Source: Clostridiales bacterium (GTDB taxonomy: Bacteria; Bacillota; Clostridia; Oscillospirales; Oscillospiraceae). Taken from it: a DNA stretch of 64,000 nucleotides. The stretch spans positions 75 to 64,074 of the forward strand of contig JAJBUK010000066.1 in the NCBI GenBank assembly GCA_020860385.1. Reading direction: 5' to 3'. The notes under the pieces are model-generated. The model saw only the letters and a list, made by a program, of their open reading frames with translations. It searched no databases and was not told the DNA's origin. A program made the translations under genes and the position numbers. Positions within the stretch are counted from its first letter, which is position 1, and each line of letters starts with the position of its first letter. Shown piece after piece: positions 22,831 to 38,904 of the stretch.

Positions 22831-22972
22831 AATCACAGTGTAATTTTTCTGTTTCGTTTTGACCGCGCAGCTGAAGCGCGCGTACCCCTTTGCAGGCAGG
22901 GCCTGCCGGGCGGAAGCTCCCGGCTTGCAGAGGGATGCGTCAGGGCGGAACGTGTGTTTAGAGGTGGCACGG

Positions 22973-24739
22973 ATGAACTTAGGCGTTGATTTTGGCAGTA
23001 CGTATTCCAGTTTTTCCTTTTATGACGAGATCGAAAAAAAGATCGAATTGTGCAAACCTGGGGAGAAGGATCCTGAGGCGATCCCTTCCATCGCCTGCAT
23101 TGATGACGACGGCAACCTTTTGACCGGATACAGCGCCAAGGCCCATATCCAGCTGGAGGACCCGGAAGCCCTCTCCTTTTCCGCGTTTAAGATGCTGCTG
23201 AACGAGCAGGATAAGCGCACCCTCACCAGCCGGAACTATTCGGCGGAGTACACCCCCAAACGGGTGGCGGGGGCGTTCCTACAGCAGCAGATTCACAGAA
23301 TTCTGAGCAATCACGCCGCCTCTGAAATTGAGAACCTCGTCATCTGCGCGCCGGAGGTGTGGACGACGCAGAACGCCGTCCGGCACGGCCAGATGGATGG
23401 CCGCACTATCCTGCGGGATATCTGCGGCAGCATCCCGGAGGTCAAAAACGTGAATGTGGTCAGCGAACCGGCGGCGGCCAGCGCCTACTTCGCTTACCGG
23501 TACCGGGAGACGGCCCCTCAGAGCTACCGCCTGCTCATTATCGACTACGGCGGCGGTACCTTGGACCTGACCCTGACAGAGGTGCATCCCCAGGGGGCCT
23601 CTGTGGAGATCAAGGTGCTGTACCGCACCGGCTTTGGGGAAAATGAAAACGGCAAAATCGGCAACGCCGGTATCGCGTATATGGAGCGGGTGATGCAGCT
23701 GGCCATTGCGGAGGAGACGGGCGGCGACCCGGATGCCATTCCGAAGGACGCCAATTTCCGTAAGGCGGTCAGTTCCCTGGAGAACAAGCTGATGGATCAG
23801 GTCTCCCTGGATGCCGTGGGAGAGAACGGCAAGGATGCCAGCAGCGACAACCAGAAGCGTCTCTGGTATGCGGTGGAGGAGTGCGGCGCGGAGCTGACCG
23901 ATTTGCTGGACAATACGGAGCAGTTCGCCAAAATCCGCTACGGCAGAAAACCAATCATTGTTACCTTCTCCCATCTCATGCAGGCGTATAACGAGATTAT
24001 CGAACCCACCCTGGAGCATTGCATGGATGAGGTCACAGCCTGGACGAAGAAGCACAACAAGCTGGACTTCTATGTGGTGCTGGCCGGTGGATTTGGAAAA
24101 TTTATCCTGGTGCAAAAGCAGGTGGAATGGCACTTTGAGCGCTCCCGGACAGGGGACCGCCGGTTCCAGTACAGTCTGGGGAAGGACCGGGAATATGCCG
24201 TCTCCATGGGGGCGGCGCTGCTGGCCTCCGGCATTATGACCATCAAGCGCACGGCACCCTATGGCATTGGCATTTATACGGAGACGGATAAGCGGTTCCA
24301 TTACGCCATCAACTTCCGGCAGGAGCTGATTCCGAAGCAGGAGTATTGGATTTGCAGCCAACCCGGCGCATCCGGAAAGGCCAGCGTCCCCACCCCCTTC
24401 GTGAACGGCTATAACGAGATCACCCACCTGTCCATCGGGACGGATGAGGACGCACACGCCGGTACCATCCTGCCGCTGGCCCCTGCGATGCAGGATAAAA
24501 TCGTAAAGGCGTATCAGGATATGACGGACGATTATCAGCGGCAGTTCCCTAACAAATATCCGAAGCCGCTCCATCATATCGGCTTTTCCATGGACGAGTC
24601 CGAAATCGTATCCATGCTGGTGCAGTATTATGAGCCGACGACCAGGTCGGTGGGGCGTACCATCCCCATCGAGCTGTCTGATTATAACAAAATGTTTGGC
24701 CTGACGGAGGCGAAGTTTGTCACGGAGAAGGGAAGATAA
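22973..24739 (+). CDS. Non-canonical Hsp70-family protein
   Basis: LGVDFGSTYS, SEPAAAS, IIDYGGGTLD and VLAGGFGK actin-fold motifs; start moved to the ATG at 22973. Confidence 0.88.
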   Translation: MNLGVDFGSTYSSFSFYDEIEKKIELCKPGEKDPEAIPSIACIDDDGNLLTGYSAKAHIQLEDPEALSFSAFKMLLNEQDKRTLTSRNYSAEYTPKRVAGAFLQQQIHRILSNHAASEIENLVICAPEVWTTQNAVRHGQMDGRTILRDICGSIPEVKNVNVVSEPAAASAYFAYRYRETAPQSYRLLIIDYGGGTLDLTLTEVHPQGASVEIKVLYRTGFGENENGKIGNAGIAYMERVMQLAIAEETGGDPDAIPKDANFRKAVSSLENKLMDQVSLDAVGENGKDASSDNQKRLWYAVEECGAELTDLLDNTEQFAKIRYGRKPIIVTFSHLMQAYNEIIEPTLEHCMDEVTAWTKKHNKLDFYVVLAGGFGKFILVQKQVEWHFERSRTGDRRFQYSLGKDREYAVSMGAALLASGIMTIKRTAPYGIGIYTETDKRFHYAINFRQELIPKQEYWICSQPGASGKASVPTPFVNGYNEITHLSIGTDEDAHAGTILPLAPAMQDKIVKAYQDMTDDYQRQFPNKYPKPLHHIGFSMDESEIVSMLVQYYEPTTRSVGRTIPIELSDYNKMFGLTEAKFVTEKGR

Positions 24740-24789
24740 GGCGGTCAGGGGGCGTATCCTCAACCGATCTGATGCAGGAGGAGCCATCT

Positions 24790-26583
24790 ATGAGATTTGA
24801 TAACGTCAGCAGTGATATTCAAAAATTCCGGGACCGGGACGACCTGACGCTGAACGAGCTGTTGGGGATGTTCCAAAATCTGGAGCTGGACGTGAAGAAG
24901 GCCCACCAGAAGATAGAAACCAGCGCTGTGGGCGATTCCGATGAGCTGACCAGCAAGCTGATCTGGCTGTGCAATCTGCCTGTCAAGATTGAGAAGAATA
25001 ATACCCAGGCGCTTTCCGCCGAATCCCGCTATCAGCGGCTCCAGGAGCGCACCCAGGCGCTCCGGCAGAAGGTAAGCAGCTATGAGCAGGAGCGGGCAAA
25101 GCTGGAGCAGGAGGTAGCCGCTGTTGCGGAGCTGGAGGAGGAGGCCGCAGAGCTCCGGGAGGAGATTCAGCGGCTCCAGGCGCGCAGGCAGGAGGCTGAG
25201 CGGCTGCAAGCGGAGCGTCAGAGGCTGACGGCCCAACTGGACAGCCTGCGGCAGTTGGACCTGGAGGGGCTGCGGGCGGAGAACCGCGCCCTGGAGGCCG
25301 CCGTGCAGGAGCTGCAAGCCACCCAGGCGCAGCTTACCGACCAGCGGCAGATGCTGGAAAGCACCAGGGCAGCCAGTCAAAACGGCATAGAAGCCCTACA
25401 GACAGAGATTCAGGCGCTTGAGGAAGGCAACGAGGCGCTGTCCGCCCAGACAGAGGAATTTCAGCGGCATAGGGAAGCGTTGGAGGAGCGGCAGGCCGAG
25501 CTTATGGCGCTGCAAGCGTCTCTGGCAGAGACGGAACAGACCTATCAGGAGATTTGCACCGCTATCGACCACTTCACCTGCCAGAAGGATGCGCAGGCTG
25601 CCCTCCTTGCGGAAAAGGCCCCCCTGGCGGAGCAGCTGAGGAACGAGAAGGAAACCCTGCAAACCCGCACTCAGGAGCTGGTCACGGAGATTGCCAATCT
25701 GGAGCATGAGAATCCGACCCTGGAACAGACGAACCGCCAGTATGGCGACCGGGCGGATCAGCTCAGACAGGAGAACGACGATTTGCGGCAGATGGAAGCG
25801 GACCTTCGGGCGCAGATCGACATACAGGAAGCGGATTATGCGAAGCTGGAAAGCGTGACCTTGCCTGGGCTGAGGGTTCAGCTGGAGCTGCACACCCAGG
25901 ATATGGAAAAGAGCCGGAAGAAGCAGGCGGAGCTCCGGGAGGCGATTTCGTGCAAGCTCCAGGAGAAAGAGGCAGAGAGCCGGCTCCTTGCTGAGGCGGA
26001 AGAGGCCCACCGGATGGCCAGCGAGGCGCTGGACGCCGTCAAGTCGGACAAGGAGCGTATGCTGCGCTCCGTTCAGGCGGTGGATGACAAAACCAGGCAA
26101 ATGAAGGCAGAGGTAGAAGCGCTGAACGCTTCTTTGGAGCAGAAGAATGAGGACAAAATCCAGGCCACCCTGGCGCAGCAAACGGCGGATTTGCAGCGCA
26201 GGATAGCAGACTGCGACAGAATGAATCAGGAAATCAGCCGGCTGCAGCAGGAGAATGAGGAGCAGGAGCGGCAGAGGAAATTGCTGGCAGAGCAGCAGGC
26301 AGAGGAGCAGACCCGCCAGCAGAAGGCCGTTGAGGATTATCAGCGGCTGGAGCTGGAGTTCCAGAGCCTGACCCAGAAGGACGCTGAGCTGTCAGGGCTG
26401 CAAACCAGGCTGTCCGCGATGAATGTAATCGTGAAGCGGCTGGAGGAGGACAGCAAATTCTTTGACGGGAAGCCGTTCTCGCTGACGAAGGGGCTGCAGG
26501 ATGAGATGAATCAGGCGGAACGGGCCCTCTCGGAGGCCCGGCAGGCCATCAAAAGCTATCAGGAAACGGTAAGCAGTCACTAA
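24790..26583 (+). CDS. Long coiled-coil protein (~597 aa), function unknown
   Basis: E/Q/L/A/R heptads over >500 aa; no P-loop, no TM; RBS AGGAG before the ATG at 24790. Confidence 0.8.
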   Translation: MRFDNVSSDIQKFRDRDDLTLNELLGMFQNLELDVKKAHQKIETSAVGDSDELTSKLIWLCNLPVKIEKNNTQALSAESRYQRLQERTQALRQKVSSYEQERAKLEQEVAAVAELEEEAAELREEIQRLQARRQEAERLQAERQRLTAQLDSLRQLDLEGLRAENRALEAAVQELQATQAQLTDQRQMLESTRAASQNGIEALQTEIQALEEGNEALSAQTEEFQRHREALEERQAELMALQASLAETEQTYQEICTAIDHFTCQKDAQAALLAEKAPLAEQLRNEKETLQTRTQELVTEIANLEHENPTLEQTNRQYGDRADQLRQENDDLRQMEADLRAQIDIQEADYAKLESVTLPGLRVQLELHTQDMEKSRKKQAELREAISCKLQEKEAESRLLAEAEEAHRMASEALDAVKSDKERMLRSVQAVDDKTRQMKAEVEALNASLEQKNEDKIQATLAQQTADLQRRIADCDRMNQEISRLQQENEEQERQRKLLAEQQAEEQTRQQKAVEDYQRLELEFQSLTQKDAELSGLQTRLSAMNVIVKRLEEDSKFFDGKPFSLTKGLQDEMNQAERALSEARQAIKSYQETVSSH

Positions 26584-26611
26584 AAGCATGGTAAGGAAGG
26601 CGGAAGGCACG

Positions 26612-27103
26612 ATGAAAACTTGTATTGTATGTGGGGGCAGCTATGCGGATGCGGAGTGCCCGTATTGCCATTTCCCGGAGATCAGCGTCATCGGGGACGA
26701 TAATGCGCCTCTGATGGACTACGCCAATCAGTACCGGAAGGAGTACCTGAAGGACATGAAAATTGGCGTGCTCTGCTACCGCTGGAAGGCCAGCGGAGAG
26801 CAGCTGGTCCTGGATGAAACGGCGTGTCAGCTCTTTGCCAGCGGAGAAGCGCTGGAGCAGCGCGAGGTGTGGTGCGAGCAGGAATTTGCCCGCTGCCCCG
26901 AAGGGGACGCCCTCCCGATCACGCTGGTGACGGAGAAGGACGGCGTACGGAAGGAAATCGGCGTCTCCGTTCCCAATCTGAAGGAGCCGGGGCTCCAGCA
27001 GGTGGGCCTCCGCCTCCGGGAGCAGCTCAGGGTCAATGTGCTGCTGCGCAGCGGACAGAAGCAGACCATGTCTGCCCCCATCTCCCTGGTGGGAGTGGAA
27101 TAA
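26612..27103 (+). CDS. Small Zn-ribbon hypothetical protein
   Basis: N-terminal CIVC...CPYC; host-like codon use; in-operon position. Confidence 0.7.
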   Translation: MKTCIVCGGSYADAECPYCHFPEISVIGDDNAPLMDYANQYRKEYLKDMKIGVLCYRWKASGEQLVLDETACQLFASGEALEQREVWCEQEFARCPEGDALPITLVTEKDGVRKEIGVSVPNLKEPGLQQVGLRLREQLRVNVLLRSGQKQTMSAPISLVGVE

Positions 27104-27139
27104 GGGAAGCGGCGCTTCATCAGGAGAGGAGGGTGGCGT

Positions 27140-28741
27140 TTGTTTTCCACACATAAACAGCTGTATTTCGTATTCCAGCACGAGGGCGAGACGTATTTTC
27201 TGGACAGCACGCTTCAGCTCAGGCTGGACGATTGGCTTCGGCTTTCCCTGCGCAGGAGCGGCTATCGCTATACCTACTTCCTGGATGCGGTGGGCAGCCA
27301 GATGAAGCTGACCATTCTGGATGCGGACAGCTACCACCAGTACTACGCCAGAAGCCTCTGGTTCAAGCCCGACTTTCAGGGGCAGGTCTGCATTGACCTG
27401 GATCAGGAGAGGGCTGTCCAGTGGCTGACGAAGGAGCTGGGCAGGAGGAACGGAGCGTCTGCATTCGTGTGCCGCATGGAGGCCTTCGCCCGGCTGTTCC
27501 AGCCGGATTATCCCTCGAAGGCCAGACTGCTGGACAGGCTGATACAGCGGCTCCACAGCTGCCGGGATGCCCTTGTTCTGGTGGGGCCAATGGAGATGAC
27601 GGAAGAGGTGCTTTCCCTGTATACTGCGCCGGGCAGCGTACTGGCCTATGTGGACAGGGAGACCGGGCAGAGCCTTTGCAGGAGCGCCCGGGAGCTGCTG
27701 CTGGATAAGGACAACCTGTGCTTCTTTGACAGGCTGCGGGAAAAGCTGGACGATCAGTTCCTTGAACTGGGTACCTTTACCTTTGACGGCCTGAAGACGC
27801 TGATGGGAAACGTCCGCTTTGCCCGGGACGAGGCCTGGGACGAAGGCACGCTCCTGGATTATACCAACTTCCTGTACTTCTGGACGTACAAGCCCAAGCT
27901 GAGGGCCTATTGCCAGGGGCTGTTTTCCTCGCTGAAGCAGCCGATTACCTATGCCGCCCTGTTCCGTTGCCTCTGCGATAACGGAATCACCGCAATGGAG
28001 GAGCGTATTCAGCGCCTGCGGCGCTCCGCCAGGAATAAGAACGAATCGGAGCGGCTGATCGACATTTTGGTACATCAATTCGGGCCGCTGCCCAAGGACT
28101 ATCCTTCCCAGGAGAGCCACGTCGTCTTTGCGGAGCCGGAGCTGTCCGCCCTGGCCGAGCTGCCCTGGCCTGAGTGGGCCTACCGGAAGGGAGCGTCGCC
28201 CTTCCAGATTTGGGAGCCTGCGGAGCGGGAGTGGGACGTGATGAAGCGGAGCCTTCTGAAGGCGCGGAACCGGCCCTTCCCCCGGACGCGCATCCGCTGG
28301 ATCGATAAATTCGTGGTGCGCATGAAGCGGGCGGAGAATCGCGGCGACCATTGGACGGTGCGACGCACGGTCAACGTGCTGCTGTATTGCGGGAATAACC
28401 TCTATACCGAGGGGGAGTTCGACCAGTACTGTCAGGGCTGTGAGCGGTACCTCACCGTCTCTGAGGGATATTTTGACAAGTACAGGGAGTATCTGCGCAT
28501 CAAGCCCTCCGGTACAGACGCGGTCGCTGCGGTGCAGGGGCAGCTGTACAGCTATGGAATCGCCCTGGAGAGCGCGGACGCGGAGTATCAGACCGTTTCG
28601 GAAATCAGCGGCATCGACCTGACCGACACCCTGCAAACGCTCTTGGAGAGCGTCCAGCCGACGCCGGACCACAGCGCCGATGCCGATATGGACAGTGAAA
28701 CTGCCAGCCGCATCCTGGAAGCACGCGCCAACAGGAGGTAG
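27140..28741 (+). CDS. Hypothetical protein (533 aa)
   Basis: Long ORF with GAGGAGG RBS and TTG start; no family recognised. Confidence 0.75.
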   Translation: MFSTHKQLYFVFQHEGETYFLDSTLQLRLDDWLRLSLRRSGYRYTYFLDAVGSQMKLTILDADSYHQYYARSLWFKPDFQGQVCIDLDQERAVQWLTKELGRRNGASAFVCRMEAFARLFQPDYPSKARLLDRLIQRLHSCRDALVLVGPMEMTEEVLSLYTAPGSVLAYVDRETGQSLCRSARELLLDKDNLCFFDRLREKLDDQFLELGTFTFDGLKTLMGNVRFARDEAWDEGTLLDYTNFLYFWTYKPKLRAYCQGLFSSLKQPITYAALFRCLCDNGITAMEERIQRLRRSARNKNESERLIDILVHQFGPLPKDYPSQESHVVFAEPELSALAELPWPEWAYRKGASPFQIWEPAEREWDVMKRSLLKARNRPFPRTRIRWIDKFVVRMKRAENRGDHWTVRRTVNVLLYCGNNLYTEGEFDQYCQGCERYLTVSEGYFDKYREYLRIKPSGTDAVAAVQGQLYSYGIALESADAEYQTVSEISGIDLTDTLQTLLESVQPTPDHSADADMDSETASRILEARANRR

Positions 28742-28813
28742 CTCAGGCGTACTTCATAGAAGAATCAACCATCATCCATCCTGAATCAATCAAACGAAAG
28801 AGAGGACAAAAGT

Positions 28814-30082
28814 ATGCCATTTACGGGAAAAAACAAGAAGCGGACCACATCCCGTTCATCTGCCAGCGGGGTGGGCAAGGTGATCGAAGATGTGAAGGCC
28901 GCCGTCGGCCTTGCGCCGCAGAAGGAGGAATCCCCTGCCGCCGTCATGAGCGAGAACCGGAGCAGAGGCGAGGAAATCGTCAGCACGCTGCGCAGCATCC
29001 AGTTCTCCCAGGGGCAGCTTCCGGACACGAAAAGCGATGAGAAGCAGCCCTGCGGCGACATGGAGATGACCCGCAACGCGATTTTGAAGAAAATCGACAA
29101 TGCCCCCACGATTTTTGACCAGATCGAAGGTATCGACCGGGTGCTGCTCTATGCGGCCCGGGCCTGGAAGACCGCCGTGGAGGATGGCTCGCCCAACAAG
29201 GCGGAGTGGGCCATGAACGCCCTCAGTGCGGGCGTCCTGTTCCTGCGGGACAATGTTCCGGAGGATCAGGAGGACCGCAAGGAGCAGATTTTGGCGGCCC
29301 GGGTCAAGTACATGGAGAAGTATGACAATATCATCCATACTTATGAGGAGATTGACAACCTGGAAAAGACCATCCGCGCCGCAGATGTCCTGGTGGACGA
29401 AAAGTGGAAGCAGGTGGAGGCCTTTAAAAAGCGCCTCAAGGAGATGCAGGAGACGGAGGAAGGGCAGCGGCTCTACGGCAGACTGAAGGCCCATGTGGAC
29501 CAGAATGACCGCCTCACGGCGGAGGAGAAGGCCTTCGATGATGAGCTGGGTGTCTACGCCAACATGGCCTATGCCATTGACCAGCAGAAGGATATTACCG
29601 CCGGCAACAAGGTGCAGCTTCTGGCGGCCTATCAGAAGGCGGAGACCTTCCGCATCGCCCTGAACGAGCAGCCGGTGGTCTATGACGAGACCATCAATGC
29701 GCAGTATGTCGCCCTGCTGGATGAGCAGGTCGCCCACCTGGCGGCCCAGTATGCGGTGGCCAGGGAGATGTCCGACGCTGCGGTGAAGTATGCCGCCGCC
29801 AGAAAGAGCGTCCTGAACGGCGAGGATGCGGTGGCCATCCGCAGCAATATGCTGGCATGGATGGAGAAGGTCCAGGAGGAGGATTACTCCGTGGATACCA
29901 TTTCCGAGCAGATTGCCCGCCGCAGAACGGAGCAGCTGGCAGAGATGAGGAAGAACAGAGCCGTTCTGGAGGAGACGCAGACGAATCAGACGGCGAACTT
30001 CGATATCAACTTCGACACCGAAGTGAACGAGAATACGGAAGAGAACGAGGCTGTCAACGAGCAGTACAATTACAACACCTGA
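28814..30082 (+). CDS. Alpha-helical/coiled-coil hypothetical protein with an acidic tail
   Basis: Basic N-terminus, helical heptads, E/N-rich C-terminus. Confidence 0.75.
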   Translation: MPFTGKNKKRTTSRSSASGVGKVIEDVKAAVGLAPQKEESPAAVMSENRSRGEEIVSTLRSIQFSQGQLPDTKSDEKQPCGDMEMTRNAILKKIDNAPTIFDQIEGIDRVLLYAARAWKTAVEDGSPNKAEWAMNALSAGVLFLRDNVPEDQEDRKEQILAARVKYMEKYDNIIHTYEEIDNLEKTIRAADVLVDEKWKQVEAFKKRLKEMQETEEGQRLYGRLKAHVDQNDRLTAEEKAFDDELGVYANMAYAIDQQKDITAGNKVQLLAAYQKAETFRIALNEQPVVYDETINAQYVALLDEQVAHLAAQYAVAREMSDAAVKYAAARKSVLNGEDAVAIRSNMLAWMEKVQEEDYSVDTISEQIARRRTEQLAEMRKNRAVLEETQTNQTANFDINFDTEVNENTEENEAVNEQYNYNT

Positions 30083-30113
30083 CCCGCCGGAATCAGAAAG
30101 GAGCATGACGAAA

Positions 30114-30755
30114 ATGCCGAATATTTTTTCCAAGCGCAGCCCCGAGGAGGCCTATATCGATAAGACAATGAAGCGTATCCGCCAGCGGCAGGAGCACGCC
30201 CAGACCATTGCGGCATACGCCGCTCAGCTGGAGGAATGCAGGCTGTTTTTCCAGCACACGGTGGATTCCAGCCGGTTGAATGTGCTGCGCCGCAGGGAAG
30301 CCCGTGTCAGCGACGCCATGGAAAAGGAGCGCATCCATGACGCCATCATCGGCCTGCTGGCCGTGGAGGAGGCCAAGCTGGACCTGAGCTCCATCAGCTC
30401 CGCGAAGGATATGGACTACGCCATGCGGAACCTGGAGAAGATCCTCCGCCAGATGTATCGCATGAACGCCGGCAGTACCTCCCTGACCAAGAAGGAACTG
30501 CGGGAGAATACGGGCATGGCCTTTGACGATACCATGGAGCCCATCACCTTCTCCAGCCGTGCGGAGCTGGTGGATGAGCGGTTCGTAGAGCGGGTGATCC
30601 AGGGCTACAGCATTAAGGAGTGCATGGAGCAGACGAATGTGGTCGGCAGCGGCGCTGCGGATATGGGCGGCATCAACTTTGAAACGCCCCCCGACGATAA
30701 GAAAATCACCAGCGACGAAGAAGAGATTCTCAAGAACCGGGCCGGCAGACGCTGA
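30114..30755 (+). CDS. Putative ESCRT-III/Snf7-like protein
   Basis: ~213 aa, helical; N-terminal MPNIFSKR; helix-2-like LLAVEEAKLDLSSISSAKDMDYAMRNLEKILRQM; acidic tail ending in ExxLxxR. The CDS is secure; the family call is an inference. Confidence 0.6.
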   Translation: MPNIFSKRSPEEAYIDKTMKRIRQRQEHAQTIAAYAAQLEECRLFFQHTVDSSRLNVLRRREARVSDAMEKERIHDAIIGLLAVEEAKLDLSSISSAKDMDYAMRNLEKILRQMYRMNAGSTSLTKKELRENTGMAFDDTMEPITFSSRAELVDERFVERVIQGYSIKECMEQTNVVGSGAADMGGINFETPPDDKKITSDEEEILKNRAGRR

Positions 30756-30794
30756 GCCTGGCAGAGAGGGCATCCGGTGCCGCAGGAGGGAATT

Positions 30795-32054
30795 ATGAAC
30801 ATTAGAACGATCAATCGCTTAAATAACGAATACCGTGCCTATGTCTATGAGGCGGAAACCATCCGCAGCATGAAGAAGGAGGCCAGCCGGGAGGAAGGGC
30901 TGAATTATCAGCGGGCCGCCCAGATCTGCGGCCAGCTGGCCACTATGACCACCGGTGCAGAGGCCCAGCGCTGGATGCGCTGCCAGACTATGTGCCAGGA
31001 GAAAATGCGGGAGATTTGGAAGGACCTGTTTCCGGAGGAGGAGACTGAGGCCGAGGCCGAGCCTGCGGCATCCGATGAACCGGAAGAGGAGAAGAAACCG
31101 GCTCCCGCAAAGCCCGCAGCCAAGAAGAAGGCCGCCGCAAAGGACGATGTTTCCGATGCGACGGTAGAGAAGTGGTTCAAGCCGGACCCGGGGTATGGCT
31201 TCGACGAAGTGGCCGGCATGGATGATGTGAAGAAGCTGCTGTCCGATTGTGTGCGGGATGTCTCCATGAGCGCCCTGAATGACTATCTGGGGATGCCCAC
31301 CGTCCAGTCCTTCTTCTTCTACGGCCCTCCCGGCTGCGGGAAGACCTTTATCATCGAGGCATTTGCCCATGAACTGATGCAGCAGGGCTACAAATATATG
31401 TCCTTGGCCACGGCGGATATCCACAGCAAGTTCTCCGGCGAGGCGGATAAAATCGTCCGTCGGGCCTTTGAAGAGGCGGCGAAGAATGCGCCCTGCATCC
31501 TGTTTATGGACGAGGTGGACGGCATCTGCCAGAACCGCTCCATCGCGAATCTTTCCGACTTTAATATGCAGCTGACGACCACCTTCCTGACCAGCTTCAA
31601 CCAGCTTCAGAAAGCGAACCGGGATAAGAAATCCGTCATCTTCATCGGCGCCACCAACTACCCGGCCAATGTGGATACGGCTATGCTGGACCGGGTGGAG
31701 CTGGTACAGATCCCTCTGCCCGACCAGGCCGCCCGCGCCCACGCCTTCCGCAAGAAGTTTGGAGACATCATCCAGCTGGAGGACGGCTTTGACTGGAGCG
31801 ACATGGCGGACTGCACCGAGTGCTATAATCAGCGGGACATCAACCGGGTCAGCACGAAGCTGCTGAACCTGATCCGTACCTCCGTGGCGGAAGGATGCGC
31901 CGATGGGGAGAGCGCCGTTACCCGGTTGCAGGACGGCTCCTTCCGGCTGACGCGGGAGCTGTTTGAGACTGCCAAAGCCTCCTATGTGCCATCGCCCAAG
32001 GACGATATTGAGCGGTCGCTGAACGAGTTTGAAGAGCAGATGCGTACCCTTTGA
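30795..32054 (+). CDS. Single-ring classical AAA+ ATPase with an N-terminal three-helix (MIT-like) domain, Vps4-like
   Basis: FDEVAGMDDVK, YGPPGCGKT, SKFSGE pore loop, LFMDEVD, GATNYP and DTAMLDR; E/K/A/P linker after an ~80-aa helical domain. Confidence 0.8.
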   Translation: MNIRTINRLNNEYRAYVYEAETIRSMKKEASREEGLNYQRAAQICGQLATMTTGAEAQRWMRCQTMCQEKMREIWKDLFPEEETEAEAEPAASDEPEEEKKPAPAKPAAKKKAAAKDDVSDATVEKWFKPDPGYGFDEVAGMDDVKKLLSDCVRDVSMSALNDYLGMPTVQSFFFYGPPGCGKTFIIEAFAHELMQQGYKYMSLATADIHSKFSGEADKIVRRAFEEAAKNAPCILFMDEVDGICQNRSIANLSDFNMQLTTTFLTSFNQLQKANRDKKSVIFIGATNYPANVDTAMLDRVELVQIPLPDQAARAHAFRKKFGDIIQLEDGFDWSDMADCTECYNQRDINRVSTKLLNLIRTSVAEGCADGESAVTRLQDGSFRLTRELFETAKASYVPSPKDDIERSLNEFEEQMRTL

Positions 32055-32077
32055 GGATCGTGGGAGGCGGTTGACGG

Positions 32078-33139
32078 ATGGAGCAGGCGGAGCAGACACG
32101 GCTGTGTCGGGAATGGGCAGAAAATGTATTTTACGGGCCTTCTTATGATGATATTACGCTGTCAGAACTGCCCGACACCTACTTCTGGAAGCCAGTGTTG
32201 GAGGGGCTGAACGACCAGTTCCTGTATCAGTATTTTCAGCTAAAAAACTATCCGGGGGTACTGTTCTCCGGCCCGCCCGGCAACGGGAAGCACACCCTGG
32301 CCAAGGCGCTGCTCAATTCCCTCTGGCGGAAGCGCGGCATCCCGGAGGACAAGGCCTGTTATGCGTATGTGCAGGCCCAGGCGTTTCCGAAGGGGCAGCC
32401 GCCGCAGGAGACAGTGGGACGGGTGAACGCAGTGTTTGAACAGGCGGAGGCGTCGCTCAAAGACGGCTCGGCGGAATACTGCGTCCTGCTGTTCGACCAG
32501 ATGGAGCAGTATAACAACGTGCAGCTGGTGCTGAACGCCATCGGCGAGGCCCTGGGGGAGTATATTGACAGCATGGGCTGCGCCCGGGAGTGCTTCCTCA
32601 TCTGCATCACAGAGGATTCCGCCCTGTATAATTCCAGCCTGTTTCCGGAGCTGCTGTGCTGCCCCTGTGAGAATCCCGGACTGCGGCAGCGGCGGAAGTT
32701 CCTGCGAAGCGGGCTGACCTACAGCGTTCCAGACTGGCGAAGCCCCGGAAGCGGGATGAACAAGGATATCAAGCTCTCCGTGTCCGGTCTGTCCGTGGAT
32801 GATTTGGCGGAGCAGACCGAGGGGCTCTCCTACCGTCAACTGTCAGACTTCCTGTTCCTGCTGAAGATGGAGCTGGTGCGGCAGGGGGAGCGCAGCGAAT
32901 ATCAAAAGCTGGACGTCTCCATTGCCCTGGAACAGGACACCGTTCTGGACATTCTGGAGGTGCTTCATCGGCCCCAGCCCACCGGCGGCGCCGTGGTGAT
33001 TGCCCAGGGTGCGGCGGTATTCGGGCAGTCTGCCGCTGCGGCTGCCAACGCCCAGACTCAGACGAACAAGGACCCGAAGGATATGTCGAGCAGCGAGCGG
33101 CTGAGCTATCTGGAACAGTATCAGTTCAACGGAGATTAG
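32078..33139 (+). CDS. Degenerate (probably hydrolysis-dead) AAA+ ATPase paralog
   Basis: GPPGNGKHT Walker A variant, LLFDQ Walker B, LAEQTEGLS lid motif. Confidence 0.72.
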   Translation: MEQAEQTRLCREWAENVFYGPSYDDITLSELPDTYFWKPVLEGLNDQFLYQYFQLKNYPGVLFSGPPGNGKHTLAKALLNSLWRKRGIPEDKACYAYVQAQAFPKGQPPQETVGRVNAVFEQAEASLKDGSAEYCVLLFDQMEQYNNVQLVLNAIGEALGEYIDSMGCARECFLICITEDSALYNSSLFPELLCCPCENPGLRQRRKFLRSGLTYSVPDWRSPGSGMNKDIKLSVSGLSVDDLAEQTEGLSYRQLSDFLFLLKMELVRQGERSEYQKLDVSIALEQDTVLDILEVLHRPQPTGGAVVIAQGAAVFGQSAAAAANAQTQTNKDPKDMSSSERLSYLEQYQFNGD

Positions 33140-33154
33140 AGAGGTGAATAACAA

Positions 33155-35095
33155 ATGCGCGAATTATTGTCCAATGCGATACGGCAGAAGGGCAGAGAAT
33201 ATGTTCAAAGCGAGCGGGTCACCGTGACAGACGAGCAGCGCCTCAGCGACACCTCGGCAGAGGTGCGGGGCAAGGTGTTTTGCAGCTTCGGCTTTGTCCA
33301 CCATCCCAAAATCAATGTGGTGGAGCTGAGGGACGCCAATGTGGTGACCGATTACACCTGTGACTGCTATGAAAGCACCGGCGCGTCCGGCTTTTGCTCC
33401 CACTGCGCCGCCCTTGCCATCGCGGCCTATGGTGACGACAGGGAGCTTATCTATGAAAAGCGCAGCGGCCAGGGTGCGGCTGCCGGAGCCGGGGGGCTGT
33501 TCCAGTCGATTCCCCTGGAGCAGGTGCAAATCGACGAGGACCGCAGGGACGCCTCCGGCCGTTACGCGGCGGCCAAGGTGTTCTGCGAGTTTGGTTTTGT
33601 CCATCACCCCAGGATGCATATTCTGGGCAGCGATGAGATTGCAGACTACGCCTGTGATTGCTATGAGTACGCCGAAACCAGGGGACTGTGTGCCCACTGT
33701 CAGGCGCTGCTTCAAAAATTGAAGCAGGCGGATGGGGCGGAAGCAGCGTCCGACGCGGAGGAGCCGGAGGCCCTCTGTCAGAAGGAACCGGCGCCGGAGG
33801 AAACGCCGGACAGCGCCCCGCTTGAAGCGGAGAGCTGGTTCGCTGCGGCGGAAGAAGCAGCGCCACTGGAGGAGGAAGCGCCCCCCTTGCAGGAGGAACC
33901 AACCCTCTTGCAGGAGGACGGCAGCTCCGACGCCCCCCGGTCTATGGAAATTTTGCTGGGGGAAGACGTGGAGACTCAGGAGCCGGTGTACTGGCGGCCC
34001 AATGACACGGAGCAGGTTTTTCATACGAACATGGGCATTATCGGCACCATGGGCACAGGCAAGACCCAGTTTACCAAATCCCTGGTGACGCAGCTCTATC
34101 GCCAGCAGTACAATAACTTTGACGGTCAGAGGCTTGGCATCCTGATTTTTGATTACAAAGGGGATTATAACGAGAGCAAGCCGGATTTTGTGCGGGCAAC
34201 AAGGGCCCGCATCCTGAAGGCGTACCGGCTGCCCTTCAACCCCTTCTCCCTGACTGAAATCAGGCCGAAGCCACAGCTGCCGATTCACATCGCCAACACC
34301 TTTACCGATACCATTGCGAAGATTTACAACCTTGGCCCCAAGCAGTCCGCATCCCTGCTGCGCTGCATCATTCAGGCCTATCAGAACTGCGGTATCCTCC
34401 CAGGGGACCCCGCAACGTGGAAGCGGCCCGCGCCCACCTTTGCCCAGGTGTACGACGTGTACTGCGCCAATGACGACATCAAGAAGAACGATTCCCTCTA
34501 CGCCGTCATGGAAAAGCTGTTCCAGTTCCAGATTTTTGAGGATAGCCCGGAGCGGACAAAGTCCCTGTTTGCGCTGCTGAACGGCGTCGTTGTCCTTGAC
34601 CTCTCCGGGTACGACTCTGACATCCAGAACCTGATTGTGGCCATCACCCTGGATTTGTTCTACGCCCAGATGCAGAATTCCGGCTCCAGCAAGATGGATG
34701 AGCGCTACCGTCAGCTGAAGAAGCTGATTCTGGTGGATGAGGCGGATAACTTCATGTCTCAAAACTTCCCTGCGCTGAAAAAAATCCTGAAAGAGGGCCG
34801 GGAGTTTGGCGTTGGCGTTATCCTCTCCACTCAGTTCCTGACGCACTTTGGCACGAGGGCTGATGATTACTCTAAGTATATCCTGACCTGGGCCGTTCAC
34901 AACGTAGCCGACCTGAAACGCTCCGACGTGGAATTTGTGTTTAAAACCGATGGAGTGCCGGCGGAGACGGAGCGCATCTTCCGCCAGATCAAGGCGCTGG
35001 AAAAGCACCGCAGCATGGTGAAGATCGGGAACGCGCCGATGGTTTCCATTCAGGATATGCCCTTCTGGAAGCTGGTCAGCGACCCACAGATTTGA
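33155..35095 (+). CDS. Tandem SWIM Zn-finger + HerA/FtsK-type ATPase (DptH C-terminal-like)
   Basis: Two repeats VFCxFGFVHHP...CDC-x8-9-CxHC; GTMGTGKT, IFDYKGDY, LVDEAD and KEGREFGVGVILSTQ. Confidence 0.8.
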   Translation: MRELLSNAIRQKGREYVQSERVTVTDEQRLSDTSAEVRGKVFCSFGFVHHPKINVVELRDANVVTDYTCDCYESTGASGFCSHCAALAIAAYGDDRELIYEKRSGQGAAAGAGGLFQSIPLEQVQIDEDRRDASGRYAAAKVFCEFGFVHHPRMHILGSDEIADYACDCYEYAETRGLCAHCQALLQKLKQADGAEAASDAEEPEALCQKEPAPEETPDSAPLEAESWFAAAEEAAPLEEEAPPLQEEPTLLQEDGSSDAPRSMEILLGEDVETQEPVYWRPNDTEQVFHTNMGIIGTMGTGKTQFTKSLVTQLYRQQYNNFDGQRLGILIFDYKGDYNESKPDFVRATRARILKAYRLPFNPFSLTEIRPKPQLPIHIANTFTDTIAKIYNLGPKQSASLLRCIIQAYQNCGILPGDPATWKRPAPTFAQVYDVYCANDDIKKNDSLYAVMEKLFQFQIFEDSPERTKSLFALLNGVVVLDLSGYDSDIQNLIVAITLDLFYAQMQNSGSSKMDERYRQLKKLILVDEADNFMSQNFPALKKILKEGREFGVGVILSTQFLTHFGTRADDYSKYILTWAVHNVADLKRSDVEFVFKTDGVPAETERIFRQIKALEKHRSMVKIGNAPMVSIQDMPFWKLVSDPQI

Positions 35096-35135: not shown

Positions 35136-35169
35136 AAAAGCGTCTGCCGCAAAAACGGCAGACGCTTTT
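35136..35169. terminator. Bidirectional terminator closing the accessory operon and cotJ
   Basis: AAAAGCGTCTGCCG-caaaaa-CGGCAGACGCTTTT. Confidence 0.88.
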
Positions 35170-35176
35170 CTATTGC

Positions 35177-35779
35177 TTACTTCCGGTCAAAGGACGGGTT
35201 GCAGAGATAGACGTTCTTGTGGTTCATCTTCTCCTTCGCAAGCTCCAGCACCTCACCGAAGCGCTGGAAATGCACCACTTCCCGCTCCCGCAGGAAGCGG
35301 ATGACATCGGTCACATCCGGGTCGTCCCGGCAGAAGCGGAGGATGTTGTCATAGGTCAGCCGGGCCTTCTGTTCGGCGGCCAAATCCTCCGTCAGGTCGG
35401 CGATGGTGTCTCCCGTCACCTGAATCGTGGCGGCCGTCCAGGGGTCGCCGCTGGCGGCGGTGGGGTAGACGCCGGCGGTGTGGTCTACAAAGTAGGCGTC
35501 AAAACCGGCGGTCTCGATTTGCTCCTGAGTCAGGTTCCGGGTCAGCTGGTGGACGATGGTGCCCACCATCTCCAAGTGGCCCAGTTCCTCCACGCCGATG
35601 TCCGTCAGGACGGCCTTGCACTCGTCAAAGGGCATACTATACCGCTGAGAGAGGTAGCGCAGGGAGGCTCCCAGCTCCCCGTCCGGCCCGCCGTACTGGG
35701 AGATGATGAGGTTGGCCAGCTTGGGGTTGGGATTCTTGATGCGGACGGGGTATTCCAGCTTCTTTTCATAGACAAACAT
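35177..35779 (-). CDS. cotJC: Spore coat protein CotJC (Mn-catalase family)
   Basis: MFVYEKKLEYPV, QYGGPDGEL, EELGHLE, EDLAAEQKA and REVVHFQRF. Confidence 0.93.
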   Translation of the reverse strand: MFVYEKKLEYPVRIKNPNPKLANLIISQYGGPDGELGASLRYLSQRYSMPFDECKAVLTDIGVEELGHLEMVGTIVHQLTRNLTQEQIETAGFDAYFVDHTAGVYPTAASGDPWTAATIQVTGDTIADLTEDLAAEQKARLTYDNILRFCRDDPDVTDVIRFLREREVVHFQRFGEVLELAKEKMNHKNVYLCNPSFDRK

Positions 35780-35782
35780 AGG

Positions 35783-36232
35783 TCAATCCTCTCCTTTCAG
35801 GTCCCAGGGCCAGGGGGAATGGGTCCACTGCCAGCTGCTGTCCGCGGCTGCCGCTGCCAGGTCCAGGGGGCCGTTCTGCCGCTCGTAGGCGGCGCGGGAG
35901 CGTTCCATCATGGCGGAATACTCCTGGAACAGGGCGAAGGCATCCTCATCGTCCTGATGGGTGTCCAGGTACAGGGCCAGCTCCTGCAAAACGAAGTCCA
36001 GCGCCTGGAGTTGGGCCAGCGGCGTCATAGGCACCGGGGTGCCGTTCACCGCCAGATGGAAGGGGAGGTTCAGGCAGGGGAACAAAGTCCCTTGGCTCAG
36101 GGCGTCGCAGTCCTTATAAATCGGGGCGTTCTCCTGTTGGAAGGGTACATAGGGTACCGCCAACGGCGCACAGGAGGGCATGGTGCCGTTGCAGTCCGTG
36201 CAGCGGCTGGTTTCAGATGACTTTCTGGTCAT
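35783..36232 (-). CDS. cotJB: Fused CotJA-CotJB spore coat protein
   Basis: N-half LAVPYVPFQ..GTLFPCL (CotJA-like); C-half LYLDTH..GPL..WQWTHSPWPW (CotJB). Confidence 0.85.
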   Translation of the reverse strand: MTRKSSETSRCTDCNGTMPSCAPLAVPYVPFQQENAPIYKDCDALSQGTLFPCLNLPFHLAVNGTPVPMTPLAQLQALDFVLQELALYLDTHQDDEDAFALFQEYSAMMERSRAAYERQNGPLDLAAAAADSSWQWTHSPWPWDLKGED

Positions 36233-36424
36233 ACGCACAAGCTCCTTTTCCGTGAAAATAAGTCGAATGCTGCATGATGCGGCGTTCGACTTATTTTATG
36301 CGCTGGCGGGGGAAAGGGTGCAGGCCGGAGCACGCTGCGTTGGTGCCTGGAAAACGACATATCATTCCGTTTCGGCATGAAAGCGAAAAAGAGGCGGAAA
36401 TCCGCCGGTCAGGAGCGCACCGGG

Positions 36425-37345
36425 TCACGCTTCGTTCCGGCTGGCGATTTCCTCCTGGACGGACTGGACAAAGTGCTTCGCGGCGGGGGAAAGCTCCTCG
36501 TCCGCCCGGTAGCAGAGGTAGACCGGGGCGGTGACGTGGGGCTGGAGCTGGACGACGGAGAAGGGGGCGTGGTCCGGGAAGTTGGAGTCCTCTGGCCGCA
36601 CCGTCAGATTTTCCATCAAAATGGCGATACCCATCTCCTTGGTGACCAGATCCAGAACGCTGTCGATGCGATTGCAGAAGAAGGCGATTTTTGGGGAAAA
36701 CCCCACCCGATGGCAGCTTTCCAGCACCAGATTGTGGGCGACGCTGTTCTCCGCCAGGGCAATAAATGTCTCGTCCTGAAGCCGCTCCAGCGGCAGTACC
36801 TTCTCCTTTGCCAGTGGGTGGCTTTTGGGGAAGACGCAGACCAGGGAGTCCTCACAGTACTGAAAGCCGTGCAAACCGGCCTCTTCCAGGCTGTTATTCG
36901 GCAAATGGGCAAAAATCATATCGCATTTCCGCGCCTTCAGTTGGCCGATCAGGTCGTTGGGGTCGCCCTCTATCATGCGCACACTGCTGTTGGGGTACCG
37001 CCGCTTGTAATTGGCGAGGACCTCGGTGATGCGGTATTTTGCGGTGGCGGAAACCGTTCCCACCGTGACCCGGCCCCGCATGGATTCCAGTTCATTCTCC
37101 AGGTCGGCGGTATAGTCATACTCGGCCTGTACGATGGTTCTGGCGTGGGGCAGCAGCAGCTTGCCATACTTGCTCAACACCACCTTGCGGGAGGTGCGCT
37201 CAAACAAGGGAACCCCCAATTCCCGCTCCATAGCCATGATGTGCTTGGACAGGGTGGACTGGCCCATGAAGAGGCGTTCCGCCGCCTCCAGGTAATTGGA
37301 AGTATCTGCCAATACGATAAATTCACGAAAATAGCTCAGGTTCAT
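36425..37345 (-). CDS. LysR family transcriptional regulator
   Basis: N-terminal HTH AAERLFMGQSTLSKHIMAMERELGVPLFERTSR; 306 aa. Confidence 0.93.
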   Translation of the reverse strand: MNLSYFREFIVLADTSNYLEAAERLFMGQSTLSKHIMAMERELGVPLFERTSRKVVLSKYGKLLLPHARTIVQAEYDYTADLENELESMRGRVTVGTVSATAKYRITEVLANYKRRYPNSSVRMIEGDPNDLIGQLKARKCDMIFAHLPNNSLEEAGLHGFQYCEDSLVCVFPKSHPLAKEKVLPLERLQDETFIALAENSVAHNLVLESCHRVGFSPKIAFFCNRIDSVLDLVTKEMGIAILMENLTVRPEDSNFPDHAPFSVVQLQPHVTAPVYLCYRADEELSPAAKHFVQSVQEEIASRNEA

Positions 37346-37365
37346 TTGACATACCTCACAAATCT

Positions 37366-37380
37366 ATTCTAGTCTGGAAT
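37366..37380. promoter_or_regulatory. LysR-type binding box in the divergent intergenic region
   Basis: ATTC-N7-GAAT dyad containing T-N11-A, upstream of TTGCAA-N17-TATAAT (37401-37429). Confidence 0.6.
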
Positions 37381-37545
37381 CGATTATACAGGATTTTGAA
37401 TTGCAAGTCAAGTTTTTGGAAACTATAATATGAAACAGATACGAAAACCGGCTACCAAAGGTCGCGGAAACGCCGGAACACGCGGCGCGCCAGGGGGCCT
37501 ATCCAGCCAGTCAAGCGGTATCACATCAAAAGGAGGAGTATATCT

Positions 37546-38904
37546 ATGAACAAAAACAAAAAAGTTCCGCTTTGGCGGAAAACAGTCTATGGCCTTGGCA
37601 CTGGCGGCGGCAACGTCTTTAGTCAGATTGGCGCGGCATTCCTGCTGAGCTACTACACGGACACCGCGCTGATTGGTGCGGCGGCCATCGGTACCATGTT
37701 CGTCGTCTGCCGTATCTTTGACGGTGTCAGCGACCTGATTATGGGCGCTATCGTAGACAGAACCAACACCAAATGGGGCAAGGCCCGTCCCTGGCTTATC
37801 CTGTCCGGCCCGCTGACCTTCCTTGGCATTGTGCTGCTGATGCACGTTCCCTCTGGCGCAAGCGAGGGGATGAAGCTGGTGTATGCTTACGCTACCTACA
37901 TCTTCATGTCCGTTATCGTCTATACCATTTTCGGCATTGCCAACACCGCCATGCTGCCCCTGATGACCCGTGACCGGGATGACAACACTATGCTGGCCAC
38001 CTTCTCCGCTGTGGGCAACAGCGTCATCGGTCTGATTGCCGGTTCCTCTATCACCCCGCTGGTGCTGGCATTTGGTTGGCATTGGGCCAGCATTATTCTG
38101 GGCCTGGTCGCTGGCGTCCTGATCCTCATCTCCGGCCTGGTGAATAAGGAGATGAAGCCCGAAGAAGGGGATGCAGAACAGGTTCAGGGCGAACAGCCCA
38201 CCCTGAAGCAGCAGTTCCCCGCCGTTATGAAGAACCGTTATTTCTGGCTCCTTTTGCTGATTGGCATCTTCTCCCTGCTGATGAACGCCAACGCGATTGC
38301 TGCTCAGAGCTATTACGCCTCCTATGTGATTGGCGACCCCATGTTCATGTCCACCCTGATGACGGCAGGACAGGCTCCTGGCATCATTATCCTGTTCCTG
38401 ATGCCCGCTATCTCTAAGCGGTGGTCCAAGCGGGCTTATCTGACCATGGGTGCCGTCCTGCTGATTATTGGCTTCCTGATTTGCGGCTTTGCCGGCACCA
38501 ATACCACTCTGGTAGTCATCGGCGTGGTCATCCGCGCTCTGGGCGCAGGTCCTCTGCTGAGTGCTGTATTTGCCTTCGTGCCTGATGTGGTGGAATATGG
38601 CTACTGGAAGTACGGCGTCCGTTCTGAGGGCCTGATTTCTTCCGCCCAGTCCATCGGCTCCAAGATCGGTATGGGCTTCGGCTCCGCCATGTGCGCCTGG
38701 GTTCTGGCTGCTGTGGGCTACAGTGCCTCTCTGGAGACCCAGTCTGATGCCGTTATCAGCGCCATTCAGTTTGATTATACCTTTGTGGGCGCTATCATCG
38801 GTGTGATTATCCTCGTCCTGGTGCTGCTCACCGACGTGGAGAAGTATGCTCCTCAGTTCCATGAGGCCAACGCTATGAAGGATCAGACTGCCAACGACCA
38901 GTAA
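37546..38904 (+). CDS. MFS transporter, glycoside-pentoside-hexuronide (GPH) family
   Basis: 12-TM pattern; RIFDGVSDLIMGAIVDRTNTKWGKARPW and DVVEYGYWKYGVRSEG. Confidence 0.9.
   Translation: MNKNKKVPLWRKTVYGLGTGGGNVFSQIGAAFLLSYYTDTALIGAAAIGTMFVVCRIFDGVSDLIMGAIVDRTNTKWGKARPWLILSGPLTFLGIVLLMHVPSGASEGMKLVYAYATYIFMSVIVYTIFGIANTAMLPLMTRDRDDNTMLATFSAVGNSVIGLIAGSSITPLVLAFGWHWASIILGLVAGVLILISGLVNKEMKPEEGDAEQVQGEQPTLKQQFPAVMKNRYFWLLLLIGIFSLLMNANAIAAQSYYASYVIGDPMFMSTLMTAGQAPGIIILFLMPAISKRWSKRAYLTMGAVLLIIGFLICGFAGTNTTLVVIGVVIRALGAGPLLSAVFAFVPDVVEYGYWKYGVRSEGLISSAQSIGSKIGMGFGSAMCAWVLAAVGYSASLETQSDAVISAIQFDYTFVGAIIGVIILVLVLLTDVEKYAPQFHEANAMKDQTANDQ

Follow-up and report, generated by a model that had tools for sequence, protein, structure and literature searches.

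A candidate divergent ESCRT-III-like protein encoded next to an AAA ATPase in a conserved Clostridiales operon

INTRODUCTION

[quoted passage not shown] The question is raised by a gene, here referred to as g6 (30114 to 30755), in a 64,000-nucleotide stretch of contig JAJBUK010000066.1 (assembly GCA_020860385.1, positions 75 to 64,074). We refer to this stretch as the window and use its coordinates throughout; genes and their parts lie on its plus strand unless stated otherwise. An initial annotation, made from the letters of the window and a list of its open reading frames (ORFs), had read the 213-amino acid (aa) product of g6 as an ESCRT-III/Snf7-like protein with a MIM1-like tail. Here, we report that this reading is partly supported. 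g6 founds an unannotated family and is a candidate for a divergent ESCRT-III-like subunit, and it sits in a conserved cassette (g1 to g9; 22859 to 35095).

Based on reviews of the field, ESCRT systems coupled to Vps4 occur only in archaea and in eukaryotes, and the bacterial ESCRT-III relatives PspA and Vipp1 are without a Vps4-like partner (PMC7619361, PMC11188069). Ravi et al. 2024 described genes for PspA or Snf7 next to genes for AAA+ ATPases in bacteria, an operonic coupling that suggests ATP-dependent remodeling, and reported that a TPR-6TM protein replaces Snf7 in bacterial Vps4-like transfers (PMC11237479). The g6 family and its operon are described neither in PMC11237479 nor in the ESCRT surveys PMC7619361 and PMC11188069.

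RESULTS

g6 is a genuine gene of a rare and unannotated family

The g6 ORF ends at 30755 and has two possible ATG start codons, at 30105 and 30114. A Shine-Dalgarno-like AAAGGAG (30097 to 30103), read directly from the sequence, precedes the ATG at 30114 by 10 nt, whereas only 1 nt separates it from the ATG at 30105. In the family alignment, a start at 30114 brings MPNIF of g6 into register with the MGLF and MSIF N-termini of its relatives. This start bears out the length of 213 aa, and the strings quoted in the initial annotation are all present, i.e., MPNIFSKR at residues 1 to 8, LLAVEEAKLDLSSISSAKDMDYAMRNLEKILRQM ("helix 2") at residues 81 to 114, LVDERFVERVIQG ("late helix") at residues 152 to 164, and the tail EEILKNRAGRR. 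Because homologs with 94% to ~17% identity exist with the same neighboring genes, g6 is a genuine gene rather than a chance ORF. The hidden Markov model (HMM) of the family matches g6 and the plus frame alone within the window (E 2e-65), and the overlapping minus-strand ORF at 30093 to 30773 (226 aa) is, therefore, a high-GC antisense artifact. No second family member, canonical Snf7 gene, or PspA gene was found in the window.

The g6 family is rare and unannotated. Among 5.8 billion proteins, a word-indexed search identified six clusters. A full profile search, which covered 1.84 billion cluster representatives, identified 71 proteins at E ≤0.001, of which 30 had E ≤1e-10 and all are about 200 to 280 aa long. 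The family was present in 2 of ~185,000 species genomes, both of which are Clostridiales metagenome-assembled genomes; this search was run with the close-relative set of g6, and the 64-sequence family alignment had no block that was conserved enough. The three visible subclades are mutually homologous with an hhalign probability of >99%, and the GC content of the loci ranges from 40% to 61%. Public records label the products of g6, g5, and g4 as "hypothetical protein," and a tblastn comparison of g6 with phage and plasmid collections gave no match.

The predicted helix order and the N-terminus of g6 resemble those of ESCRT-III proteins

The AlphaFold model of g6 based on 64 sequences (predicted local distance difference test [pLDDT], 87.2; predicted template modeling score [pTM], 0.72) contains helices at residues 10 to 62, 68 to 92, 97 to 119, 126 to 133, 148 to 152, 155 to 162, 167 to 178, and 200 to 212. 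It superseded an earlier, independent model from 7 sequences (pLDDT 70), which had the same helix pattern and gave Foldseek matches only at E ~1. In the 64-sequence model, helix 1, as assigned by DSSP, spans 53 residues (30141 to 30299; pLDDT 95 to 98). Helices 2 and 3 (30315 to 30470), which are delineated by the model and the family alignment, jointly equal helix 1 in length and include two conserved blocks, IGLLAVEEA and LRQMYRMN. Conservation in the family is highest in the block F146 to C170 (FSSRAELVDERFVERVIQGYSIKEC; 30549 to 30623), which contains invariant columns and is predicted to form short helices with a pLDDT of ~96, while the linker before the terminal helix has a pLDDT of ~59. 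This order, in which a long helix 1 is followed by helices 2 and 3, by short helices, and then, after an acidic linker of low confidence, by a terminal helix, is that expected of an ESCRT-III protein. Based on the pTM and the Foldseek alignments, helix 1 is predicted to pack as a hairpin on helices 2 and 3. The two strings that had been taken for single helices are helical but interrupted in the model; the "helix 2" string spans a break at residues 93 to 96, and the "late helix" falls into the two short helices at 148 to 152 and 155 to 162 in the family's most conserved block.

In a Foldseek search of the PDB with this model, the best match was 9s99_B, a filament of the archaeal ESCRT-III protein CdvB2 (E 0.084, probability 0.85), followed at rank 2 by a Vipp1 filament (8qbr). 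Closed CdvB (9s9j) matched with a template modeling (TM) score of 0.44, and 12 of the top 50 matches were CdvB, CdvB2, or Vipp1. The top 30 matches in BFVD included PspA from a phage and Snf7 from a giant virus, with nothing significant in that search. Thus, the check by AlphaFold and Foldseek that had been proposed with the initial annotation returned a helix order that fits ESCRT-III and CdvB2 and Vipp1 as sub-threshold top matches.

The N-terminal motif of g6 (MPNIFSKRSPEEA; residues 1 to 13; 30114 to 30152) was delineated using the family alignment, in which the consensus is M-G/S-L/I-F-K/S/G followed by K-T/S-P-E-E. Where g6 has MPNIFS, relatives have MGLF, MSIF, or MGIF, and a hydrophobic-F motif is located inside the first 14 residues in 36 of the 64 family members. 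The family N-terminus resembles those of CHMP2A (MDLLFGRRKTPEEL), CHMP3 (MGLFGK), and PspA (MGIFSRF). Judged by sequence, the g6 family appears to have the hydrophobic or amphipathic N-terminal motif of ESCRT-III proteins. Earlier described as short and amphipathic, the N-terminus of g6 is indeed short and CHMP-like but not strongly amphipathic (hydrophobic moment, 0.26). Similarly, the proposed "long basic helix 1" is long, with 53 residues predicted, but only mildly basic (net charge of +4 over residues 1 to 62). The mean charge in the family is +3.5 in the N-terminal half and −7.2 in the C-terminal half, compared to +8 to +16 and −11 to −27, respectively, in Snf7-family references. The basic-to-acidic polarity that had been noted, therefore, holds in its direction, with the N-terminal half being the more positive in 62 of the 64 members, but is much weaker than in the references.

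Profile comparisons give a weak colinear signal to Snf7

For comparisons using hhalign, reference sequences were verified with Pfam, which recognized 10 of 10 as Snf7 and 5 of 5 as PspA_IM30 and also recognized MIT, AAA, and Vps4_C domains in further reference sequences. Nothing could be read from a first set of narrow alignments (fungal Snf7 and enterobacterial PspA), in which even the positive control of Snf7 versus PspA failed; it was replaced by the diverse Pfam-verified sets. With these, the comparison of the 64-member g6 family with the 10 Snf7-family proteins gave P values of 0.0057 (local) and 0.003 to 0.0002 (global). The local score was 24.5, compared to 13.8 ± 2.4 (maximum, 22.0) in 80 block-shuffled decoys, and the global score was 16.9, compared to 5.4 ± 3.3 for decoys; reversed controls had P values of 0.09 to 0.3. 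The relaxed alignment, which runs colinearly from end to end (g6-family columns 4 to 240 versus Snf7 columns 1 to 224), sets M..IFS of g6 on M..LFG and the tail on the MIM region of CHMP3. Two of the three subclades independently gave the Snf7 signal (global P 0.0002 and 0.0033). The positive control, Snf7 versus PspA in the same setup, gave P 4e-5 to 4e-6 with a probability of ~70%. If the g6 family is part of this superfamily, it is, therefore, far remoter from Snf7 and PspA than those two are from each other.

The C-terminal tails of g6 and g4 co-vary

In the model, the C-terminus of g6 is a docking-type helix (SDEEEILKNRAGRR; residues 200 to 213; 30711 to 30752) located after the acidic linker. 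The MIM1 consensus is (D/E)xxLxxRLxxL(K/R) in a C-terminal helix. The g6 tail holds E203-x-x-L206-x-x-R209, and the protein terminates at R213, without LxxL(K/R). Among close relatives, L206 and G211 alone are invariant in the tail, and position 209 varies. The layout, with a C-terminal helix after an acidic, low-confidence linker and a motif common to g4 and g6, is of the MIM1 type. Specifically, the tail of the g4 protein, SRILEARANRR (28690 to 28741), matches that of g6, and the tails of g4 and g6 change in step across three cassettes, i.e., ILEARANRR and ILKNRAGRR in the window, ALLEKYAGMH and KLSQKYAGER in locus L011, and LIKNFSGAS.. and WLREQSGQNW in locus L001. A C-terminal peptide that co-evolves on g4 and g6 argues for a shared docking site, for which the N-terminal domain of g7 would be the obvious candidate.

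We note two further pairs of tails. In the window, g5 ends in NEQYNYNT and g8 in LEQYQFNGD, and in locus L008, DYEEV.DA forms the end of the g4-like protein and also that of the g5-like one. The matching tails of operon proteins suggest a set of docking peptides.

g6 is adjacent to genes for an AAA ATPase and a degenerate AAA-like protein

Wherever a locus has enough sequence, the gene directly downstream of the g6-family gene encodes a classical AAA ATPase; this holds for the loci of relatives with 17% to 50% identity as well. In the window, this gene is g7 (30777 to 32054; 425 aa; Pfam AAA, 5e-29). By direct reading, its product has one AAA cassette of the classical clade, in which the Walker A (GPPGCGKT) and Walker B (ILFMDEVD) motifs are intact and the pore loop is aromatic (SKFSGE), and based on these motifs, it is predicted to be an active AAA ATPase. 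NCBIfam scores were roughly equal for CDC48 (4e-32) and CdvC (3e-31). In pairwise comparisons, VPS4B scored best with 112 bits, compared to 103 for katanin and 100 for both p97-D2 and spastin, and an assignment of g7 to the Vps4 branch is, therefore, marginal. As in Vps4, katanin, and spastin, an N-terminal region, which in g7 has ~80 aa and is probably helical, is followed by a charged low-complexity linker.

The next gene, g8 (32078 to 33139; 353 aa; Pfam AAA, 7e-7), encodes a degenerate AAA-like protein with the Walker A motif GPPGNGKH, a Walker B motif in which DQ replaces DE (LLFDQME), and no pore-loop motif. It is conserved in all cassettes and is probably a noncatalytic partner of g7.

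Several results weigh against an ESCRT-III assignment

A number of results argue against assigning g6 to ESCRT-III. g6 had no Pfam match at E ≤1 and no NCBIfam, PADLOC, or PHROG match, and the Pfam match to Snf7 or PspA_IM30 that the initial annotation had anticipated was, thus, not obtained by HMM scan. For 64 relatives (E ≤10), Snf7 and PspA_IM30 were not among the 25 most-matched of 81 Pfam families. A search of PDB sequences with the family profile (hmmsearch) returned no ESCRT-III protein and chance matches only; a phmmer search with g6 also gave chance matches only. In the hhalign comparisons, the g6 family and Snf7 aligned with a probability of only 6% to 21%, the third subclade gave no Snf7 signal, and the comparison with five PspA/Vipp1/LiaH sequences gave P 0.58, like decoys. 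As for structure, no PDB match in Foldseek had an E value below 0.05, TM-scores were 0.3 to 0.44, and designed helical bundles, arfaptin, and translin scored like ESCRT-III proteins. The modeled hairpin turn is at residues 63 to 67, while the hhalign register puts the Snf7 tip ~10 to 15 residues earlier. The tail, which had been described as MIM1-like with a degenerate second half, does not conform to MIM1; it has no more than ExxLxxR, lacks the second half altogether, and varies among relatives at R209. Moreover, none of the cassette proteins g1 to g9 has a transmembrane segment.

In the AAA protein g7, these searches detected neither an MIT domain nor Vps4_C. Residues 1 to 145 had no Pfam MIT match, while Pfam MIT recognized five of the reference sequences; the N-terminal domain had no PDB match using phmmer or a five-sequence profile; and hhalign against six MIT-containing sequences gave P 0.5, like decoys. 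An MIT identity of this domain, plausible by eye (NYQRAAQICGQL versus NYKKAIEVLAQL), thus failed by HMM, phmmer, profile, and hhalign. Vps4_C (PF09336) did not match g7, neither over the whole protein nor over its last 84 residues, while the same model matched four AAA-containing references, and the C-terminal region is too short for a beta-domain insertion. From its sequence, g7 is best named a classical AAA ATPase rather than a Vps4 ortholog.

We conclude that the placement of g6 closer to Snf7/CdvB than to PspA/Vipp1 has in its favor a weak colinear profile signal to Snf7 and none to PspA, but all of this signal is sub-threshold. The initial annotation had staked the ESCRT-III idea on a profile or structural match and on a long hairpin in the predicted fold; the idea survives on sub-threshold evidence only.

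g6 is part of a conserved operon

In addition to g6, g7, and g8, the cassette comprises six genes. g1 (22859 to 24739) encodes an ATPase resembling the Hsp70/DnaK nucleotide-binding domain (Pfam HSP70, 7e-7; PDB DnaK nucleotide-binding domain, 5.5e-6). The listed TTG start (22859 to 22972) adds ~38 residues that are absent from the L001 homolog, and translation probably begins instead at the ATG of 22973, where the sequence MNLGVDFGSTYS is the Hsp70/actin phosphate-1 motif. The g2 product (24772 to 26583; 603 aa) is a long coiled-coil protein with a weak, sub-threshold Pfam ZapB match; its homolog in L008 has 949 aa and matches Rod_CreS and CCDC39. g3 (26588 to 27103; 171 aa) is conserved and has a zinc-ribbon-like N-terminal CxxC...CxxC, and g4 (27140 to 28741; 533 aa) is without an assigned family. 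g5 (28814 to 30082) encodes a helical protein of 422 aa, also without an assigned family and without a Pfam or PDB match, and is always located directly upstream of g6. HMM scans of g2 to g6 using Pfam, NCBIfam, PADLOC, and PHROGs gave nothing beyond the ZapB match. g5 and g4 were considered as a second ESCRT-III-like subunit or a CdvA analog; this is unsupported, and g5 has no ESCRT-III signal.

g9 (33155 to 35095; 646 aa) combines a pair of SWIM zinc fingers at its N-terminus with an ATPase of the HerA/FtsK type (Pfam SWIM and DUF87). In the PADLOC DndH models, the ~400 residues at the C-terminus match residues 230 to 641 of g9 (9e-186), which places the ATPase, by sequence comparison, in one family with the motor domain at the C-terminus of DndH. 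Unlike DndH, g9 has two SWIM fingers instead of the ~1,200-residue N-terminal part, and neither DndF, DndG, nor dnd modification genes are present alongside it. With no other dnd genes present, the DndH motor domain, therefore, also occurs as a stand-alone module.

Two paralogous RCC1-repeat proteins with N-terminal zinc ribbons (20321 to 21502 and 21535 to 22716; Pfam) are encoded directly upstream of g1. Their genes are located between a promoter-like site (20206 to 20234) and g1 and are, therefore, probably the first genes of the g1-to-g9 transcription unit. There is no strong terminator before 35136, where a strong terminator hairpin with a 14-bp stem (35136 to 35169) closes the operon; together, the promoter-like site and this terminator suggest a single transcription unit that includes the RCC1 genes. 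An RCC1 gene is also found upstream of the distant cassette in L008. In other cassettes, genes for LRR or Sel1 repeat proteins are nearby in place of RCC1.

The gene order of the cassette recurs at 49% identity (L001 to L004), ~50% (L011 to L013), and 24% (L008). In L015 (GCA_965351865.1; 40% GC), the g6-family protein P0066, with ~17% identity, is accompanied by genes for a g5-like protein, an AAA ATPase, and a degenerate AAA protein, after which unrelated genes follow. Just upstream of this module, the contig comes to an end, and the HerA gene is not adjacent. Based on this arrangement, the minimal conserved module appears to be g5-g6-g7-g8.

The flanks are chromosomal, with genes for an aminotransferase and PyrK-like and GltD-like proteins upstream and cotJA/B/C, a LysR regulator, and RsmI downstream, and the locus is not obviously mobile. 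The cotJ spore coat genes, i.e., cotJC (Mn-catalase-like) and a fused cotJA/cotJB, lie just downstream of the operon on the minus strand (35177 to 36238); from these genes, the host is a spore-forming member of the Clostridiales. Nearby, the plus-strand ORFs at 35219 to 36220 and 36377 to 37372 are antisense artifacts, the latter of which overlaps the gene for the LysR regulator (36425 to 37345, minus strand). Two minus-strand ORFs (37423 to 38862, 479 aa; 38883 to 39968, 361 aa) had no Pfam match. The product of 47164 to 48288 (374 aa) has an N-terminal zinc ribbon, and such N-termini recur in both RCC1 proteins and g3.

DISCUSSION

Based on these results, we favor, as an even chance, that g6 is a very divergent protein of the ESCRT-III fold that polymerizes and is handled by g7/g8 via C-terminal docking helices inside a larger machine. 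We infer homology to ESCRT-III, as well as polymerization, membrane binding, and an interaction of the tails with AAA proteins, from the lines of evidence above. In such a machine, g6 would start with a short hydrophobic motif, pack helix 1 against helices 2 and 3, and continue through short helices and an acidic linker to a C-terminal docking helix; it would self-assemble into filaments, possibly on a membrane. The g7/g8 pair, with g7 as the active motor and g8 as its catalytically dead partner, may engage the C-terminal helices common to g6 and g4 and remodel or disassemble the g6 filaments. The g5-g6-g7-g8 module would work inside a conserved cytoplasmic operon of 9 to 11 genes; the most plausible guess is that this operon forms an accessory conflict or defense system or a system specialized in handling DNA or membranes.

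A serious contender, although in our view it falls somewhat short of probable, is that g6 is an unrelated helical adaptor or regulatory subunit with a convergent hairpin or bundle in a new multi-ATPase conflict or defense system, where it would act through contacts with the AAA proteins g7/g8 and the HerA ATPase g9, without membrane remodeling of the ESCRT-III type. Every sequence and structure match of g6 to ESCRT-III is under the usual thresholds, and long helical hairpins recur across unrelated folds, as the similar scores of designed bundles, arfaptin, and translin illustrate. ESCRT-III proteins are, however, strongly enriched among the Foldseek matches (the top match and 12 of the 50), the full-length colinear alignment to Snf7 beats decoys and reversed controls and is obtained with two independent subclades, and the N-terminal motif is CHMP-like. 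With regard to a role in conflict, the family is rare, patchy, and fast diverging (2 of ~185,000 species genomes; GC content of 40% to 61%), the variable RCC1, LRR, and Sel1 neighbors resemble those of NTP-dependent conflict systems (PMC7159879), HerA-type and classical AAA ATPases are common in defense systems (IetA and TRIP13), and g1 to g9 are all without a membrane-spanning segment. Against such a role, no PADLOC model matched g1 to g6, and the window contains no effector domain and no mobile-element or defense-island context, the flanks being housekeeping genes and cotJ. CoCoNuT type III-A extensions and NTP-dependent conflict systems were considered as descriptions of the operon and rejected as different systems with similar themes.

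That a secretion or translocation device instead has g6 as its substrate or chaperone-like hairpin protein, comparable to WXG100 or LXG proteins and with a C-terminal signal read by g9, appears improbable to us. This idea draws on the helical hairpin with its conserved extreme C-terminal motif, on the ATPase of the FtsK/HerA superfamily in the operon, and on conflict loci that pair soluble FtsK-like ATPases with WXG100-like proteins (PMC11090510). At 213 aa, however, g6 is twice the size of WXG100 proteins, lacks the WXG motif, and has no WXG100 or LXG Pfam match; among g1 to g9, there is no membrane component or signal peptide; and g9 is absent beside g5 to g8 in L015, while the AAA gene is always adjacent. 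Still more improbable is that g6 is an ordinary envelope stress protein of the PspA/Vipp1 branch. The rank of the Vipp1 filament, second in Foldseek, and a 53-residue helix 1 that is nearer to PspA in length would fit, but g6 has no PspA_IM30 HMM match, this family is not among the 25 of 81 Pfam families most matched by its relatives, and hhalign gave P 0.58, like decoys, even though Snf7 versus PspA was detected at P 4e-5. In addition, the known Psp partner genes are all absent.

Compared to archaeal and eukaryotic ESCRT-III proteins (PF03357; CdvB/CdvB2 and CHMP2/3/4), g6 is similar in size (~210 to 250 aa), in the hydrophobic F-G/K N-terminus of its family followed by a KTPEE-type helix start, in the long helix 1 with helices 2 and 3, short helices, acidic linker, and C-terminal helix, and in having a basic N-terminal half and an acidic C-terminal half. 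ESCRT-III proteins are its best structural matches and its sole profile signal above controls, and like ESCRT-III beside Vps4/CdvC, g6 adjoins a classical-clade AAA protein with an N-terminal domain and a charged linker. It differs from them in having no Pfam match and a similarity far weaker than that between PspA and Snf7, in the much weaker charge polarity of its family, in a longer helix 1 with the turn at 63 to 67, in an extra, highly conserved small block (residues 146 to 170), and in a tail that is neither MIM1 nor MIM2. Unlike Vps4, g7 has no detectable MIT, Vps4_C, or beta-domain, and its partner, g8, is an AAA paralog that is probably dead. The host also sets g6 apart from described ESCRT systems, as it is bacterial (Clostridiales), and so does the operon, with its Hsp70-like, coiled-coil, and SWIM-HerA genes. 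With PspA/Vipp1/LiaH (PF04012), g6 shares a bacterial host, solubility, the MG(L/I)F N-terminus of its family, and a long helical hairpin, but there is no profile signal, and PspB, PspC, PspF, LiaI, and LiaF are not encoded nearby. The arrangement of g6 as an ESCRT-III-like gene beside an AAA gene in bacteria is like the pairings described by Ravi et al. (PMC11237479), except that PspA or Snf7 is recognizable in those. We regard g6 and g7 as a new and so far unannotated variation on the ESCRT-III-plus-AAA theme, with homology to ESCRT-III being putative.

More speculatively, and on balance unlikely, the g6 family could be a third deep branch of ESCRT-III beside Snf7 and PspA/Vipp1, i.e., a bacterial filament with an AAA disassemblase and its own C-terminal docking code, common with g4 as a second client, in an 11-gene cytoplasmic machine that has Hsp70-like, coiled-coil, and SWIM-HerA/FtsK components and would remodel membrane or DNA in gut Clostridiales that form spores. 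The parts of the operon are small, soluble, and easily tested in vitro. If g6 is a true ESCRT-III protein, it would represent a new branch of the superfamily and bear on the origin of the partnership between ESCRT-III and AAA proteins; otherwise, it would be a clear case of convergence on a polymer-plus-unfoldase design. Either way, the operon is a conserved and wholly unannotated system of human-gut Clostridiales with three predicted active ATPases and a degenerate fourth.

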